Of a stretch of DNA of 52,390 bases, positions 1-12,242 are shown one piece after another. Every line of letters begins with the position of its first letter. Position 1 is the stretch's first letter. The DNA lies in the IMG/VR virus record IMGVR_UViG_3300048856_000102, positions 1 through 52,390 of that record; one strand, written 5' to 3'. Under the pieces are notes generated by a model, which searched no databases, was not told the origin of the DNA, and saw nothing but the letters and a program-made list of their open reading frames with translations. The DNA comes from a virus. Its lineage: Duplodnaviria > Caudoviricetes. The position numbers and the translations under genes are program-made.

Positions 1-1101
1 TTAACGGCCAACCAAGCGGATGACGCGATCCATTCCATCTGTCGCAAGCCGGGATTGTTCAGCCTCTCTGGAGTACAGTTCGGCATGTGCAATATCGTCA
101 TGCCCGAGCGTATCCATGATCTGTCGGGTTGATGCCCCGCCCTCCGCCAACATCTTCCCGAGCGTCTTTCTCAGACCATGCAGCGTGAAGCCTGGCTCGA
201 TGCCCGCAGAATTTGTCCAGTCAGCCATGCGGCCCGTAATGGACTTCGGAGAAAATGGCTCTCCATAGGCGGTTACCAAGACGGTAGGACCACGCCGTTC
301 AGTAGCGTCCAGGATGTCAGAGAGCATGGGCATGATTGGCAGAAACAGTTCCTTGCCGCCTTTACCCTGCACGACATTGAAGCCGTCGACCTTGCGCTGT
401 TGCCCATCCATGAGAACCGTCTTTGTGACACGCTGTTCCCATTTAAGACCAGCAACGTCCTCACGTCTGTTTCCGAGCCACAGGGCAAGCGCATAGGCGA
501 GGCGAGGGGTGGACCCAATGGGCCAGCGCTCTTCATATTTGCGCATTGCCTCCGCCGTCCACGCCTTCCAGCCGACATACTCAGGGCGCCATTTCAGCTT
601 GTAAGACGGGTCAACGTCTATCCATTCCTCATCCATTGCTGCATCGATCATTTTCCTGATCGCTGTCAGCAGATGCTTCGCCTTGTGCGGCGTTTCGGAA
701 TATTTGGATATGATATCTTTGAGATGCCGGCGCTTGAGGTCTCTGACAGGAACATCCCGCCATTGAAATGGATCTGTCTCGATCACGCGCGATTCAAGAA
801 ACATGCTGGCAAGAGAGCTGTTCTTGTCCTTCGTCGCCGGATCGAAAGCCTTCCACTCTGCCGACGCGATCACCAGTCGCCAGGCCGCGCCGAGCGTGCA
901 AGGCAGCGCTGCATTCGGATGCTTTACAATCTTGGCTGCGGGCTTCTTCAAGCCATTCAGAGCGCTCTCGTAAGCATTCTCGAAATCCGGTTCTCCGGGA
1001 CTTCCCAGCAGAGAAATGGTCTTGCCGTTACGGCGAAACCGCCAACGTTCTGTTCCGTGGCGGTCTTTGAAACTGGAAAGGTATGGGCGGCTTTCGGTCA
1101 T
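1..1101 (-). CDS. int: Tyrosine recombinase (phage integrase)
   Basis: Catalytic motifs GNRRED, LHGLRKT, LGH...Y; arm-binding-like N-terminus (DRHGTERWRFRR). Confidence 0.95.
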   Translation of the reverse strand: MTESRPYLSSFKDRHGTERWRFRRNGKTISLLGSPGEPDFENAYESALNGLKKPAAKIVKHPNAALPCTLGAAWRLVIASAEWKAFDPATKDKNSSLASMFLESRVIETDPFQWRDVPVRDLKRRHLKDIISKYSETPHKAKHLLTAIRKMIDAAMDEEWIDVDPSYKLKWRPEYVGWKAWTAEAMRKYEERWPIGSTPRLAYALALWLGNRREDVAGLKWEQRVTKTVLMDGQQRKVDGFNVVQGKGGKELFLPIMPMLSDILDATERRGPTVLVTAYGEPFSPKSITGRMADWTNSAGIEPGFTLHGLRKTLGKMLAEGGASTRQIMDTLGHDDIAHAELYSREAEQSRLATDGMDRVIRLVGR

Positions 1102-7913: not shown

Positions 7914-8167
7914 TTGCGGTGCTCCTGAAGCGAGCGCTGCGCTACGGCGCGCTCATATTCGATTTCACGGTCAGCTTTCGGATTGCAGACAGGGCAAGGC
8001 ACGATTGGTCCGTTGTTGTTCTGTTCGATCCATCCCGCTTTCGGTCCTGCACCTTTGCAGTGGCGGCAAGTGGTGACCGGGCGTCTGAAATTCGGGTTGT
8101 TGTCCATGCCCGAGAAAAGGGCAGCCCCAACTTGGATAAATGTTCCGATGTGGCCACGCCTTTTCAT
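7910..8167 (-). CDS. Zn-finger protein (CxxCxGxG...CxxC)
   Basis: CRHCKGAG...CPVC; ATG 8167 in an ATGA overlap. Confidence 0.65.
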   Translation of the reverse strand: MKRRGHIGTFIQVGAALFSGMDNNPNFRRPVTTCRHCKGAGPKAGWIEQNNNGPIVPCPVCNPKADREIEYERAVAQRSLQEHRK

Positions 8168-8271
8168 CGACGGATCCTCCAGTTGGCCCAGTTGAATAGG
8201 ATGACCAGCGCAATGGCACATGAGGCCTGCAGCGCAAGGTCGGGAATGGTGAAGGGTTCGAGGCCGTTCAT
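8164..8271 (-). CDS. 35-aa membrane peptide
   Basis: MNGLEPFTIPDLALQASCAIALVILFNWANWRIRR with ATGA overlaps. Confidence 0.55.
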   Translation of the reverse strand: MNGLEPFTIPDLALQASCAIALVILFNWANWRIRR

Positions 8272-8489
8272 TTGCACGACCCCCGACCGGCGCCGCCCAT
8301 TTCGCCGGAGCGATTGCTCGTCCGCAAACCGCAGTCGTAGTAGCCGGAAGCGCAGGAGTACTGCGTGGCGGCCTCTATCTCGAGTGGCGACCAAGTTGCG
8401 TATGTCCCGCAACCAGAGAGCTGCAGGGCAGCCGTGATGGTGCCGACGATGACAGCAGTGCCGATTATGTGAAGCTTTGGAGAGGTCAT
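8268..8489 (-). CDS. Small putative lipoprotein, first gene of the leftward early operon
   Basis: Hydrophobic N-terminus followed by the lipobox LSGC. Confidence 0.55.
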   Translation of the reverse strand: MTSPKLHIIGTAVIVGTITAALQLSGCGTYATWSPLEIEAATQYSCASGYYDCGLRTSNRSGEMGGAGRGSCK

Positions 8490-8519
8490 TTTTAGTTGCC
8501 CCGAAATTGTTTCGATGGG

Positions 8520-8612
8520 CAACATTCGCATTCAACACGAAACATGTCAACATAAAAGATGTCAGAAAAACACAAATCATGTTGACTGACACGACCGTGT
8601 AGGTTTATGCCT
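8520..8612. promoter_or_regulatory. OL-like operator cluster with divergent promoters
   Basis: ACA-N7-TGT boxes at 8535-8547, 8550-8562 and 8570-8582, plus an N6 variant at 8589-8600. Leftward TTGACA-N17-GAATGT; rightward TTGACT (8582)-N18-TATGCC. Confidence 0.7.
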
Positions 8613-8619
8613 TCGCAAT

Positions 8620-8880
8620 CACCGGTTCGCAGGTGTCCAAAATTTAGTGGTGACGGAGGTGCAATCCCTCTCGCTGGTTAAGCCACAGGCGCGGGTATTA
8701 GATCACCCTAAGGTGCCACCAGAAACAGAGGGCGAATTGTCGAGAGGCAGTTCTGGCATATGTCCCATTCCCGGCTCCGGCCTTCTGGAACATGCCATGA
8801 TACTCTCTGCTTCGTGAGGTTTGATTACCTCATGGGGTAGGGGGTATCTTTGGCTTCGAACCACTTCCCTCACCATCCTT
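8620..8880 (+). ncRNA. Candidate large structured RNA of unknown class
   Basis: 15-nt closing stem 8647-8661/8862-8876, nested helices, a GAGA tetraloop, a 22-bp hairpin with 6 G-U pairs and a possible pseudoknot. Confidence 0.7.
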
Positions 8881-8932
8881 CTGAACAAGAAAACAAGATA
8901 ATTAACAACAGAGGAAGGTAGAGCTCAAATGC

Positions 8933-9199
8933 TCAGTTTGAAGAAGTTGGAAGTGGAGCAGATTCGAGTTGATCAGCGCTTCGCAGTAGAGCCGCAGCGA
9001 CTTCACGCAATTGAACGGCGGTCATGGTCAATTGAACCGCAGACCGATTACCTGTTCTCATGTCCTCAACGGTTTGTGGATATTCCAGCCGCGCAACACA
9101 AAACATTCCCTGTACGGGAGCAAGCGTAAAACCCATCAAGGGGCGGACGCTGATGTTGCCGTTCTCGTCTAGATCGAAGCCGTTTGCATCTTTAGGCAT
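8933..9199 (-). CDS. Hypothetical protein (88 aa)
   Basis: MPKDANGF... with AAGGG RBS; distal gene of the cI-strand cluster. Confidence 0.65.
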   Translation of the reverse strand: MPKDANGFDLDENGNISVRPLMGFTLAPVQGMFCVARLEYPQTVEDMRTGNRSAVQLTMTAVQLREVAAALLRSADQLESAPLPTSSN

Positions 9200-9236
9200 T
9201 TTCGTTCCCTTCAACCCGGCCTTGGCGCCGGGTTCT

Positions 9237-9476
9237 TCATTCCATGTCTGGAACTTCACCCGACTGAAACAGCACGGATGGCGGCCCATATTCCCCGATG
9301 TCGGGTTCAGCTTCTCTCGCCCAGGCAAGCACTCCGACATGTTTCGAAGCCAACTCACGAGCGCTGCGTAGTGCGCGATCTTCGCTGTCGAACTGCATGG
9401 CTTCGAAGGCCGGAACGATTTCACCATCATCCGATCGATCGAAGGCCATGACTACTATGAGGCGAACTGGGTCCAT
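9237..9476 (-). CDS. Small hypothetical protein of a rhizobial type
   Basis: LIVVMAFDR...GVLAWAREAEPDIGEYGPP; AGGAG RBS. Confidence 0.7.
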   Translation of the reverse strand: MDPVRLIVVMAFDRSDDGEIVPAFEAMQFDSEDRALRSARELASKHVGVLAWAREAEPDIGEYGPPSVLFQSGEVPDME

Positions 9477-9477
9477 T

Positions 9478-9813
9478 TTAGGCTCCTGCAGAAGAGGTGA
9501 GGGCATCTTGCGTCAGCCTGCGCCTGACGTCTTCCTTCTGCTGTCGCACCATGCCGGGGATCAGAAAGGCATCAACCAAGGCCCATACTCCGAGGAGTCC
9601 CAAGATAACTAGGCCAACTCCAGCAACAGCCGTGATCACTCCGATTATAAATAGGATGAGCATGGTAGCACCCGACTTTGAAAGGCCCAGATAGAACCTA
9701 TGTACACCAAGTGCTCCCAGGAAAAACCACATCAAATATGCCGCTCGACGGGATTTGGCCTGGTTCGCCACCCGCTTCTCGATAAGCATTCTGTCTTGTG
9801 TTGACAGTTCCAT
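9478..9813 (-). CDS. TM2-domain membrane protein
   Basis: KS..AAYLMWFFLGALGVHRFYLG signature. Confidence 0.85.
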   Translation of the reverse strand: MELSTQDRMLIEKRVANQAKSRRAAYLMWFFLGALGVHRFYLGLSKSGATMLILFIIGVITAVAGVGLVILGLLGVWALVDAFLIPGMVRQQKEDVRRRLTQDALTSSAGA

Positions 9814-9847
9814 GTTTTTCCCAGCCCGGCCAAGCGCCGGGTTTTGA

Positions 9848-10420
9848 TCACCACTTGCATGCTGCTCGAAGCGGCTTAATCGCTTCATCAATTCCAGATA
9901 TTGGAAACTCGCCCGACACAGCACTCTCTGAAAACGGTGTCGCGCGAACAAACAGCGTCTTCGCTCCGATCAATTCCTTTATCCATGGCACGGATGACTT
10001 TTCGCTCCACAAACCTAAAACGGCATGGTCGTTAGAATCGGTGAAAGCTTTGCTCTTCGCTGGTTTGTCATCTACGCGATATTCGACCTTACCTCGGCCC
10101 TCAATGCTCGACATAAAGTGCCCAGCAAAATCGATATATACCTTGGTTTGACCTTCGTCGCATCGGATGAACAGGAACAAAGGCTTTTCCTGACCGTATC
10201 GGTTTTTGAATGGCGCAACCGATTGAACTGCCAAGCCAACACTGGGGCTGTCATCCAGTTTGGATTTCCCTTCGTCAACAAGCCAAACGCCCTTTTTCAA
10301 TTTTGCCATGGCGCAGGCATACTTGTCTTGAGCACTCGTCTTGGTGGAGCAGTCAACATCCTCTCCATGGACGGCAGTGGAACATAACAGCAGCAATGCG
10401 GCGGCGATCGGTAGCCTCAT
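9848..10420 (-). CDS. Exported VasI/TagO-like (T6SS-associated family) protein
   Basis: Signal peptide; W...SKLDDS...LFIRC.EG.T...VEYRVD...STDN-like segment...C-terminal IKPLRAACKW. Confidence 0.7.
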   Translation of the reverse strand: MRLPIAAALLLLCSTAVHGEDVDCSTKTSAQDKYACAMAKLKKGVWLVDEGKSKLDDSPSVGLAVQSVAPFKNRYGQEKPLFLFIRCDEGQTKVYIDFAGHFMSSIEGRGKVEYRVDDKPAKSKAFTDSNDHAVLGLWSEKSSVPWIKELIGAKTLFVRATPFSESAVSGEFPISGIDEAIKPLRAACKW

Positions 10421-10423
10421 CAC

Positions 10424-11200
10424 TCACCGGACCGTGCTGAATTTGCGCAAAACCCTGCCGACGATGGTTAGCTCATGCGCCTTCCATGTCTTTGTTTTAT
10501 GCCGAGGATTGTCTGACATCACTGAGATGAGGGTTTCTTCTGCGCCAGGATCACTTGTGACCTCAAGGCGCTTGATAGCCAGCCCACCGATCTCATCGAT
10601 GATTGCATAAAGACCATCAGGCGAGGGGCGGCGATGCCTGGTATCGATAAATACGACATCACCTTCATCAAGCGTGGGCTGCATCGAATCGCCCTGGACC
10701 GGGAATATCGCGATGTCCTTAGCAGCCAGACCAAGTGTGACGAGAATAGCCGGCGGCAATTTCCAATAGTCCTTCACCGCCTCTGCCGAAAAGGTCATCC
10801 CATGTTTTCCAGCAACCCCTTCGCTGGAAATAGCCAGACCGCCGGCACCCATCCCCGCTGTGATATCGATCTGGGGCGAGCTGCCCTCGGGTGCACCTCG
10901 CAATCCTGTTTCGGATCCCAAGGTCATTTCGTGGTCGCCATGGCTTTGCTCGGGAGCATCAGGGTCATAGCTGTGGACTAATCGCGGTTTTCCATCCTTC
11001 TGACCAGTCAATAGCTCGGCGGCACTTACACCGAACTTTCTGGCGTAAATTATCGCGTCATCAGGGCCATATTCGTTCTGGCCGTTCTCATGAGCTCGAT
11101 ACGTCGACGCAGTTACGCCCATGGCTTCTGCCGCTTTCGTGGCCGAACTAAACCCGGCGCTCATGCGCGCCTCTCGCAATCTTTCACCCATTGTCTTCAT
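10424..11200 (-). CDS. cI: CI-like repressor (XRE HTH plus S24 peptidase)
   Basis: MGERLREAR...YRAHENG HTH; VQGDSMQPTL...IKRL S24 Ser/Lys dyad; AG cleavage-type site. Confidence 0.92.
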   Translation of the reverse strand: MKTMGERLREARMSAGFSSATKAAEAMGVTASTYRAHENGQNEYGPDDAIIYARKFGVSAAELLTGQKDGKPRLVHSYDPDAPEQSHGDHEMTLGSETGLRGAPEGSSPQIDITAGMGAGGLAISSEGVAGKHGMTFSAEAVKDYWKLPPAILVTLGLAAKDIAIFPVQGDSMQPTLDEGDVVFIDTRHRRPSPDGLYAIIDEIGGLAIKRLEVTSDPGAEETLISVMSDNPRHKTKTWKAHELTIVGRVLRKFSTVR

Positions 11201-11204
11201 GGAA

Positions 11205-11274
11205 GCGACATTTACAGAACATTCAACATAAATCATGTTGACATCCTGACACGTATCGTGTTGATATCCGCAAC
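11205..11274. promoter_or_regulatory. OR operators and PR/PRM region
   Basis: TCAACATAAATCATGTTGA palindrome (ACA-N7-TGT 11226-11238) and ACACGTATCGTGT (11249-11261); TTGACA at 11238. Confidence 0.75.
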
Positions 11275-11496
11275 ATGAACACGATCGAAGACATCTTCTT
11301 GAACTTGGGCGGTACGGGCGCAGTGGCTCGTATCATAGGCGTCAAGCACTCCGCAGCATCTGAGATGCGTCGGCGTGGTTCCATCCCCGTCAAGTATTGG
11401 CCAGCCCTTGTTGAGGGTGCGACCGCTGCTGGCAAGGCAATGGATAACGACGTCTTGGTTCGTGTCCATATTGAACAGGCAGGGGCGGCAGCGTGA
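11275..11496 (+). CDS. cro: Cro-like HTH protein
   Basis: Divergent from cI; GG..AVAR.IG....ASEMRRRGSIP.KYW. Confidence 0.8.
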   Translation: MNTIEDIFLNLGGTGAVARIIGVKHSAASEMRRRGSIPVKYWPALVEGATAAGKAMDNDVLVRVHIEQAGAAA

Positions 11497-12242
11497 ACAT
11501 GATCCGCGTAGAGGAACGTCCGCAAGCCACACTGCCATCGAAAGTTGTCCATGCACCGGACTCTTTGCCAGCGCTTCTCGATAGAGCTGCAAGTGCTTTG
11601 GCCGCAGCAAAAGATAGCGCCGAAGTCCTCGAAGCTCGCGACATGGCTCGGGTTGCCTACGATGCGGCAAAGAGTGCCGGACGGCTTGCTCGCGCAAAAC
11701 AAGCGCACGATACCGTTCTCTCTCAAGTTTACCGCGCTCAGGCCGATGCCCTTATGATAGAGGCCCGCGCCAAGATGCGTTTGGCCGAAGAATACGATGC
11801 GGCGAAAGAAGCAGGCGAAGTTGCCGGTCACGGTGGAAACAGGGGAAATCAGCACGTTGCCAAGGTCGCAGGCCCGGACCTTGCCACCATCGCGGACATT
11901 GGTCTTTCGAAGCAGGAAATATCTGACGCAAGACAAATTCGAGATGCTGAAAAGGCGGAGCCCGGTATAGCCCAGCGCGCGCTCAACGCAATGCTTGATC
12001 GCGGCGAAGAGCCAACAAAGGCGAAGCTGAACCGCGAAATCGTAAACAGGCCAAAGCCTGAAAAAGTCATGAACCCGACCGCGCTTTGGTTGTGGGGCAG
12101 GCTTAAGGACTTCGAGCGGGATGGCGTTCTCACCCAAGACCCGAAATTTCTCATCAATGAAATGACCGAGCCGATGCGGGATGACGTCAGGCGTCTTTCT
12201 CCGCTGGTTGGTGCTTTCCTTGCAAAACTGGAGATCGAATAA
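11493..12242 (+). CDS. Hypothetical helical protein with probable HTH
   Basis: Ala-rich helices plus ATIADIGLSKQEISDAR; coupled to cro. Confidence 0.75.
   Translation: MNMIRVEERPQATLPSKVVHAPDSLPALLDRAASALAAAKDSAEVLEARDMARVAYDAAKSAGRLARAKQAHDTVLSQVYRAQADALMIEARAKMRLAEEYDAAKEAGEVAGHGGNRGNQHVAKVAGPDLATIADIGLSKQEISDARQIRDAEKAEPGIAQRALNAMLDRGEEPTKAKLNREIVNRPKPEKVMNPTALWLWGRLKDFERDGVLTQDPKFLINEMTEPMRDDVRRLSPLVGAFLAKLEIE

Follow-up and report, generated by a model that had tools for sequence, protein, structure and literature searches.

The immunity region of a tailed-phage provirus (positions 1 to 52,390 of IMG/VR virus record IMGVR_UViG_3300048856_000102; this whole stretch of 52,390 nucleotides (nt) is termed the window) contains, at 8647-8886 on the + strand, one copy of a conserved and uncatalogued phage RNA family. 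The conserved core of the family spans approximately 212-240 nt and can be divided into two domains. The 5′ domain, as read from the aligned sequences, is a double pseudoknot with a T-loop-like hairpin and a GNRA hairpin, and the 3′ domain combines a long G·U-rich hairpin (P7) with three strands termed A, B and C. An earlier note on this DNA had proposed a large structured RNA at this site; the element is real and five of the proposed helices hold, but the global fold is a different one.

The RNA is encoded on the + strand, an assignment that follows from the folding z-scores and from the G·U-rich covarying pairs, the latter in agreement with the strand that the earlier note had deduced from its G-U pairs. 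The + strand of 8600-8920 has a predicted folding energy of -122.7 kcal/mol (z -5.19), which was equalled by 0 of 100 dinucleotide shuffles, compared with a z of -1.02 for the - strand, where 15 of 100 shuffles folded as well. A covariance model was built on 48 sequences and all members were re-aligned to this model. In the main alignment (81 distinct rows, 55 pairs) standard pairs occupy 92.7% of cells versus 84.4% in column shuffles, and in a divergent set (38 distinct rows, 56 pairs) they occupy 92.3% versus 77.2%, values in which the nested part is favoured, since the alignments were fitted to the nested part of the model, and from which helices P1 and P4 stand apart as lying outside the model. 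Sliding the partners by 1-3 columns leaves 41-55% of cells paired in the main alignment and 44-52% in the divergent set. Changes on both sides of a pair are found at 31 of 55 pairs and 42 of 56 pairs, respectively; covariation among homologues, which the earlier note had named as the check on its fold and its pseudoknot, is thus present, but the pseudoknot proposed there is not conserved.

The predicted topology of the 5′ domain is a double pseudoknot because P1 crosses P2, and P4 crosses both P2 and P3 (table 1). P1 joins the 5′ end of the RNA to the bulge between P2 and P3, while P4 joins the P3 loop to sequence located 3′ of P2. A GGTGCAATTCC loop is also present in the family. Several columns of the long hairpin P7 have U·G as their most frequent pair (UG 72 at columns 228-262 is one case). 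The helices originally drawn as CTGGT/ACCAG (now P2), GGCGC/GTGCC (P3), the GAGA-capped hairpin (P5), TGGCAT/ATGCCA (A:B) and the long hairpin (P7) are all family helices with covariation, and GGGT/ACCC is able to form but would do so in competition with P4. Three others fare poorly. The 15-bp helix 8647-61/8862-76, thought to close the whole structure, has 54.7% of cells paired, with several pairs broken in more than 70 of 78 sequences; a pair of CCCTCT/AGAGGG is kept in only 6 of 79 sequences; and the supposed pseudoknot AAGCCA/TGGCTT has 21% of cells paired at its first two pairs and 78% at the other four, which rest on a conserved GCC/GGC with little covariation. Each of these is incompatible with one of the covarying elements P1, the T-loop-like hairpin, P4 or B:C. 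Because the closing helix is not conserved and clashes with covarying helices, the multiway junction that it was held to close is wrong, and the topology instead contains two other pseudoknots.

The region is non-coding on either strand. The antisense frame at 8703-8888, which might have offered a protein-coding explanation, is open in only 1 of 47 members, namely the window itself, and the length of the antisense segment modulo 3 is split 11/19/17 between the residue classes. Distances between conserved anchors (81-87 nt and 69-77 nt) likewise fall in all residue classes with no modulo-3 pattern.

Membership of the family was established by several searches. BLAST matches were obtained in two Synechococcus-labelled phage records and a Pseudochrobactrum plasmid-borne prophage, each in an unannotated gap. 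Pattern scans found 30 IMG/VR loci and 58 genome loci; an nhmmer filter on the pattern loci kept 89 hits, 86 of which are full length, giving 79 unique sequences and 48 below 97% identity. A second pattern, taken from the 5′ domain, recovered 36 further and more divergent members from IMG/VR and metagenomes, and a stricter version of it yielded 8 more. Full-length copies therefore rose from 86 in the first round to about 120 after the later rounds, their sources being Hyphomicrobiales prophages, IMG/VR phages, metagenomes and the two 'Synechococcus phage' records. All genuine genome hits, as defined by nhmmer, belong to Hyphomicrobiales or to one uncultured alphaproteobacterium. In an even sample of the order (strict filters, 13 candidates scored per genome) a strong match was present in 3 of 151 genomes, the centre genome included, and this sporadic presence is consistent with carriage by prophages.

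Matches of the first genome scan outside the Alphaproteobacteria (Enterobacter, Anaerolineae, Aminicenantes, Acidobacteriota, Allosphingosinicella and Pyrinomonas) were rejected as chance, with zero nhmmer hits. Five of these six sites were run against the covariance model and gave no full-length match, the one hit being 20 nt long in the site L084; the sixth, the Enterobacter site, apparently lies within a coding region and is without an Escherichia coli relative. As a separate observation, one of the Synechococcus-labelled records (OM868082.1, labelled as a phage of Synechococcus PCC 7002) has an immunity-region layout that is the same as in Rhizobiales prophages, and carries gene-transfer-agent-like tail genes. 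On account of this annotation its true host range may merit re-examination, and the cyanobacterial link should be treated with care.

Searches of existing catalogues were negative. Rfam 15 gave 0 matches over the whole window at gathering thresholds, and three chance hits (two microRNA models and one long non-coding RNA) in 8400-9100 at E up to 10, all far below threshold. ARAGORN reported 0 transfer RNA (tRNA) or transfer-messenger RNA (tmRNA) genes in the window, two-piece tmRNA included, which agrees with the initial impression that the element is neither. A full-text literature search and the passages covered of 10.64898/2026.09.22.753630 and PMC8631192 contain no description of the RNA, which is no proof of its being unpublished.

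The 3′ domain contains a covarying exchange between three strands. Strands A (before P6) and C (after P7) always carry the same 4-mer, which may be UGGC, UUGC, UGAC or UAGC, and strand B is the complement of it each time. The helices A:B and B:C are mutually exclusive; A:B closes the loop L6 and is 87% paired at column level, while B:C extends P7. The energy model, which disregards both pseudoknots, favours the fold with B:C enforced for 42 of 47 sequences (median difference 5.4 kcal/mol). In the window the two folds lie within 0.5 kcal/mol of each other, and the difference between its minimum free energy and centroid structures is exactly the A:B/B:C exchange. Because A and B are transcribed before C, we infer that A:B would be a transient helix that exists during transcription.

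A second unusual feature is a 6-11-nt word on the 3′ shoulder of L6. An identical copy of it stands 82-96 nt away in the 3′ tail, which is single-stranded and rich in pyrimidines (the copies are termed DR1 and DR2). The two copies change together among phages, with at least 20 word types. CCUUCAG is the majority word and the window has CCUUCUG at both sites; other words, each at both sites, are UCGACA(GA), CCAGCCGUCA, GGGUCAGAC, GUUCCAUGAG, GGUUCUUG, GGUCAGG, GAUCAA, UACAA and AGUGUGA. In a second subclass of the family L6 is of another type that contains a mini-hairpin ACCG...CGGU, and GGUUCAAG is one example of its words. Of 79 non-redundant members, 76 contain the same stretch of at least 6 nt twice, spaced 78-100 nt apart, and for 12 of 16 word types the unique best match is the tail of the same RNA (mean shared length 7.75 nt, versus 4.08 nt for other tails).

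What the word might pair with was sought in the phages themselves. No consistent complementary partner common to the loci lies within ±500 nt of the RNA, and in a crude comparison of the tail with the next 200 nt (RNAduplex, very long loops allowed) the mean z was 0.06, with 4 of 73 below -2. By eye, the junction UGAA and the other loops show no covariation with the word. Its complement does not occur beyond chance in six complete phage genomes and the window, where 9- and 10-nt words are confined to the two RNA sites. Given this lack of a complement nearby, downstream or elsewhere in the phage genomes, the partner of the word, if one exists, would appear not to be phage-encoded, and would be a host RNA or protein. 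A role as att core was rejected: in a Synechococcus-labelled phage GCCTTCAG occurs exclusively at the two RNA sites and is absent beside int. The 3′ tail is also seen on its own in one phage, L116, where a second-subclass RNA at 581-845 (-) with the word GGGUCAGAC is followed approximately 220 nt downstream by a solitary first-subclass tail (GGAACCCUCCCUCACCAGCCUUCAG; 281-364, -). The conserved tail may therefore serve as a recombination joint between phage modules.

In the window the RNA has its own putative promoter with PR-type operators, placed back-to-back with a leftward early promoter. Three operator-like 15-mers are situated between this PL-like promoter (TTGACA, - strand, 8551-8546), from which the early-left operon runs through recombination genes to int, and the promoter proposed for the RNA. 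The spacer of the latter contains an inverted repeat, ACACG-N2-CGTGT (8589-8600). The same layout is found in the cro promoter region, as had been pointed out before: AAATCATGTTGAC..TGACACG-N3-CGTGT upstream of the RNA recurs before cro at 11229-11260 as ATCATGTTGAC..TGACACG-N3-CGTGT. Across the family, 36 of 72 loci have an upstream TTGAC on the RNA strand at a distance of 8-95 nt, usually 40-49 nt from P1, compared with 3 of 69 loci in a control window. The A-rich tract first seen downstream of the RNA in the window is a family feature, the first 60 nt after the RNA being A-rich and 64.5% purine family-wide versus 50-52% further downstream.

The repressor is the only conserved protein neighbour of the RNA across loci. 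The repressor cluster is found in 71 of 108 loci, and the gene is convergent on the RNA in all 57 loci with a detectable homologue, lying 66-4175 nt after it, with variable cargo genes in between. A whole group of phages of Rhizobium-like bacteria retains this pseudoknotted RNA of 240 nt in one constant position, oriented towards the repressor, while the flanking genes are freely swapped, and we argue from this that the RNA itself has a function.

Our best guess, towards which we lean slightly, is that this is an early regulatory RNA that acts as a co-transcriptional switch and displays the word to a partner from outside the phage genome. Position, promoter and fold support an early repressor-controlled RNA, and the switch and repeated word suggest a short-lived structure that would offer a recognition word to a host factor. 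In outline, the RNA would be made early, upon loss of the repressor, as the earlier note had suggested in describing a CI-repressed early transcript, a description that we likewise infer from sequence. A:B and P6 would form first in transcription and be replaced some 60-70 nt later by the more stable B:C, creating a short time window in which the two identical words could be read by one partner, either a host RNA or a protein. The outcome would set the fate of the transcript, meaning either read-through into the cargo genes and antisense into the repressor operon, or action in trans on the host.

Several points weigh against this proposal. The transcript, its ends and its timing are deduced from DNA letters, 36 of 72 loci are without an upstream TTGAC, and some loci have by eye an opposite-strand terminator-like hairpin in its place. 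A strict sigma-70 scan of 8000-11600 returned no promoter, and the -10 element is weak. A same-strand open reading frame (ORF) of at least 40 codons with a Shine-Dalgarno (SD)-like motif follows within about 160 nt in only 33 of 66 loci, which rules out a leader role for the family as a whole. Since the predicted stability of A:B is below that of B:C, A:B may never matter. The shuffle control for the repeat is weak (12 of 79 sequences above all 100 shuffles) because the tail is of low complexity, which leaves the case for word identity to rest on the concerted changes, and one member, L148, carries differing words at the two sites. The partner of the word is so far hypothetical.

Among the alternatives, the one to be taken most seriously, although we consider it unlikely, is a trans-acting regulatory or sponge RNA, in which the two exposed words would be seeds for a host mRNA, a host small RNA or a host RNA-binding protein in early lytic reprogramming of the host, and the 5′ domain would provide stability or recruit protein. 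The identical words stand in unpaired contexts and change together, the phage genomes compared contain no target, a sizeable ORF immediately after the RNA is absent from half of the loci and the RNA gene has a putative promoter of its own. Repeated identical motifs are used by the Rhizobiales small RNAs NfeR1 and AbcR1/2. However, the double pseudoknot and near-invariant loops are far more elaborate than known base-pairing small RNAs, and an intrinsic terminator appears to be lacking after the RNA; a terminator scan does flag P7 plus CUUUGGCUUC in the window, but family-wide the bases after P7 are AGCUGUGGCC, AGCUAUGGCC or GUCUUUGGC, with few U, and are paired with B. The complement of the commonest word, CTGAAGG, occurs 968 + 943 times in one Rhizobium genome, which is too frequent to point to a target. 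The immunity antisense RNAs c4 of phages P1 and P7 and the CI RNA of P4 are approximately 70-80 nt long and carry words complementary to transcripts of their own phage. They are similarly immunity-region phage RNAs with short exposed words able to pair, whereas the RNA described here has no complementary site in the phage genomes compared and no Rfam C4 match, is three times larger and is pseudoknotted.

A T-box-like, tRNA-binding RNA is a distinctly improbable reading. The word would be a codon-like specifier for the anticodon loop of a host tRNA, the T-loop-like hairpin (PT) would help to dock the tRNA and the A:B/B:C exchange would report the result, so that early transcription beside the repressor gene would respond to the status of tRNAs or amino acids. 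The likeness to a T-box riboswitch would lie in a variable, arguably codon-like word followed by A, in a T-loop-type motif and in mutually exclusive helices, which are conserved. The word varies mostly in two bases before a constant C-A (UUCA is most frequent, followed by GUCA, GACA, UACA and AUCA) and can be written as an 'NNC codon plus A'; T-box specifier codons favour C in the third position and then a purine. In the PT loop, UGCAAYU, the U and A are spaced as in a T-loop, and the lack of a phage-internal partner is consistent with a host RNA. Set against this, there is no Rfam T-box hit even at E up to 10, no UGGN bulge able to read the tRNA 3′ end and no evident intrinsic terminator, and the host group is another. 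Identity between the copies often extends over 8-11 nt, beyond what an anticodon loop reads, and exceptions to C-A are UUCU (the window, L166 and L327), UUCC (L149) and GUGUGA (L158). Strands A and C change from UGGC to UUGC, UGAC or UAGC in step with B, which means that they pair with B and cannot read the invariant CCA end of a tRNA. Moreover, the word is present twice, and we know of no precedent for two specifier copies. A more specific version, which we regard as a speculative idea with little chance of being right, is a phage-borne sensor of host tRNA: the word would be the specifier codon (mostly UUC; GUC, GAC, UAC or AUC elsewhere), the T-loop domain would dock the tRNA, transient A:B would provide a kinetic window and the state of a particular tRNA pool would determine whether early transcription continues antisense into the repressor operon. 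If true, it would be an RNA-only link from the translation status of the host to the lysis-lysogeny switch, built on a scaffold unrelated to T-boxes.

We think it very unlikely that the RNA is self-processing or processed. In this view the words would mark two sites of cleavage, either by a ribozyme core in the 5′ domain or by a sequence-specific nuclease, and a hairpin fragment some 90 nt long would be set free. Loops with almost unchanging nucleotides and a core with a double pseudoknot are usual in RNAs that catalyse reactions or bind ligands, and the identical words stand at a fixed spacing, but no internal guide sequence complementary to the words was found and there is no match to a ribozyme family. 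Least credible of all is a template RNA for repeated copying of the DRT2 or telomerase type, in which the words would let nascent DNA jump across a unit of about 90 nt (rolling-circle reverse transcription). Template jumping needs identical boundary motifs, and the identical words do bound a unit of 82-96 nt whose ends are joined by B:C pairing; such motifs are seen in 76 of 79 members but are by themselves insufficient for membership. The DRT2 non-coding RNA (10.64898/2026.09.22.753630) and retron msr-msd resemble the present RNA in being structured, 200-300 nt long and located in prophage cargo regions, and in having a long hairpin and boundary words that are short and repeated. Both, however, go with an adjacent reverse transcriptase gene (UG2-type for DRT2), and here there is no reverse transcriptase: RVT_1 has no match in the provirus (95% complete) and matches 0 of 45 RNA-bearing related virus records, 30 of which are at least 90% complete. 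The repressor is the sole conserved protein neighbour, lengths of the unit do not agree modulo 3 and every frame is interrupted, and the inverted repeat that would correspond to retron a1/a2 is the unconserved closing helix 8647-61/8862-76 described above. A template for a phage-encoded enzyme is thus largely refuted.

A temperate phage takes its decisions in the immunity region, which in well-studied phages holds rexAB-type protein cargo or small antisense RNAs. FuFi-1 is one of several orphan structured RNAs that Weinberg and colleagues are said to have reported in 2017 near phage or XRE-type repressor genes. FuFi-1 is likewise a conserved structured RNA of a few hundred nucleotides with no assigned function and a link to prophages and repressor genes. 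However, no Rfam family, FuFi-1 included, matches the RNA of the window at E up to 10; the latter has different hosts (Alphaproteobacteria) and adds a double pseudoknot, a three-strand switch and a repeated word. The putL and putR antitermination RNAs of phage HK022 are approximately 70 nt long, consist of two simple stem-loops and lie in the main early operons. Here too a folded RNA would be the first part of an early repressor-controlled transcript and could act in cis on polymerase, but the RNA in the window is oriented away from the early-left operon, with the repressor gene ahead of it.

Two features have no ready explanation in known RNA classes: the covarying three-strand exchange, and a word that is identical at two sites yet varies between phages. 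Such 'covariation by identity' points to a shared partner and offers a direct experimental handle. Should the partner prove to be a host RNA, for instance a tRNA, the element would be a new means by which a virus senses the condition of the host cell. At a minimum, Rfam would gain a new, well-supported family, and one well suited to structure determination.

Table 1. Elements of the RNA and its surroundings in the window.
Feature	Position and sequence	Strand	Remarks
Three operator-like 15-mers (TCAACAYNAAANATG type)	8532-8581		Repeat family with inverted repeats GTCAACAT/ATGTTGAC; same half-site words before cro
Putative RNA promoter	8582-8610	+	TTGACT 8582-87, 17-nt spacer, weak -10-like TTATGC 8605-10
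P1, pseudoknot helix	GUGGU 8647-51 / GCCAC 8682-86	+	4/5 pairs change both sides, 98.5% of cells paired; encloses PT and 5′ strand of P2
PT, T-loop-like hairpin	8656-59/8667-70, loop UGCAAUC 8660-66	+	4/4 pairs change both sides
P2	8674-78/8718-22	+	Stacked on P3; 99.7% paired, both-sided changes
P3	8688-92/8713-17	+	100% paired, both-sided changes
P4, pseudoknot	ACCCU 8705-09 (P3 loop) / AGGGC 8729-33	+	Column 91-122: UA 69, CG 8, UG 2, never broken
Isolated pair	G8712-C8726	+	Standard in 37/37 sequences: GC 21, UA 10, CG 6
P5, hairpin	8734-53, GAGA (GNRA) loop 8742-45	+	Every pair changes both sides (divergent set)
Strand A	UGGCAU 8754-59	+	A:B pairing
L6, loop	within 8754-8797	+	Near-invariant CCGGCUCCGG; word copy DR1 CCUUCUG 8781-87
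P6	8761-65/8787-92	+	5/5 pairs change both sides (divergent set)
Strand B	AUGCCA 8792-97	+	Complement of A and C
P7, long hairpin	8799-8848	+	Pyrimidine-rich 5′ arm, G-rich 3′ arm (GGGGUAGGGGG); many G·U pairs
Strand C	UGGC 8851-54	+	Pairs with B
Pyrimidine-rich tail	8861-76	+	
Word copy DR2	CCUUCUG 8877-83	+	
Purine- and A-rich tract after RNA	8884-8928	+	Includes SD-like GGAAGG before 66-codon ORF
66-codon ORF	8929-9129	+	No Pfam or PHROG hit
CI-type repressor (helix-turn-helix and Peptidase S24)	10424-11236	-	Pfam, PHROGs; convergent on RNA

The genes around the RNA vary between loci. A recurring cargo pair lies 35-100 nt after the RNA on the same strand in five loci (L001, L003, L006, L019 and L023), and consists of a protein of about 250 amino acids starting MAETSIEWTDATWNPVAGC, which we take to resemble the Gp37/Gp68 (DUF5131) family, followed by a convergent partner of about 300 amino acids that is presumably TcmP-like. 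This pair is replaced elsewhere by a DUF488 protein, by an HNH-like protein or by tiny membrane peptides. In the window, a TM2-domain protein and a VasI-like (PF11319) secreted protein are encoded between the RNA and the repressor (9478-10423, -); these are probably cargo of the repressor operon expressed in the lysogen.

In six loci (L015, L030, L049, L045, L019 and L028) the opposite strand, read by eye, has a G+C-rich hairpin with a run of T behind it (such as GAAAGCAATGCTTTC and then TTTCTGCTT), 20-50 nt upstream of P1. It looks like an intrinsic terminator, and would end repressor-operon transcripts once they had crossed the RNA gene in antisense. At the other end of the immunity region in the window (11238-11275), a TTGACA-N17-TTGATA promoter has its -10-like TTGATA only some 9 nt ahead of the cro start codon (11275), and the cro mRNA may therefore be leaderless or nearly so.

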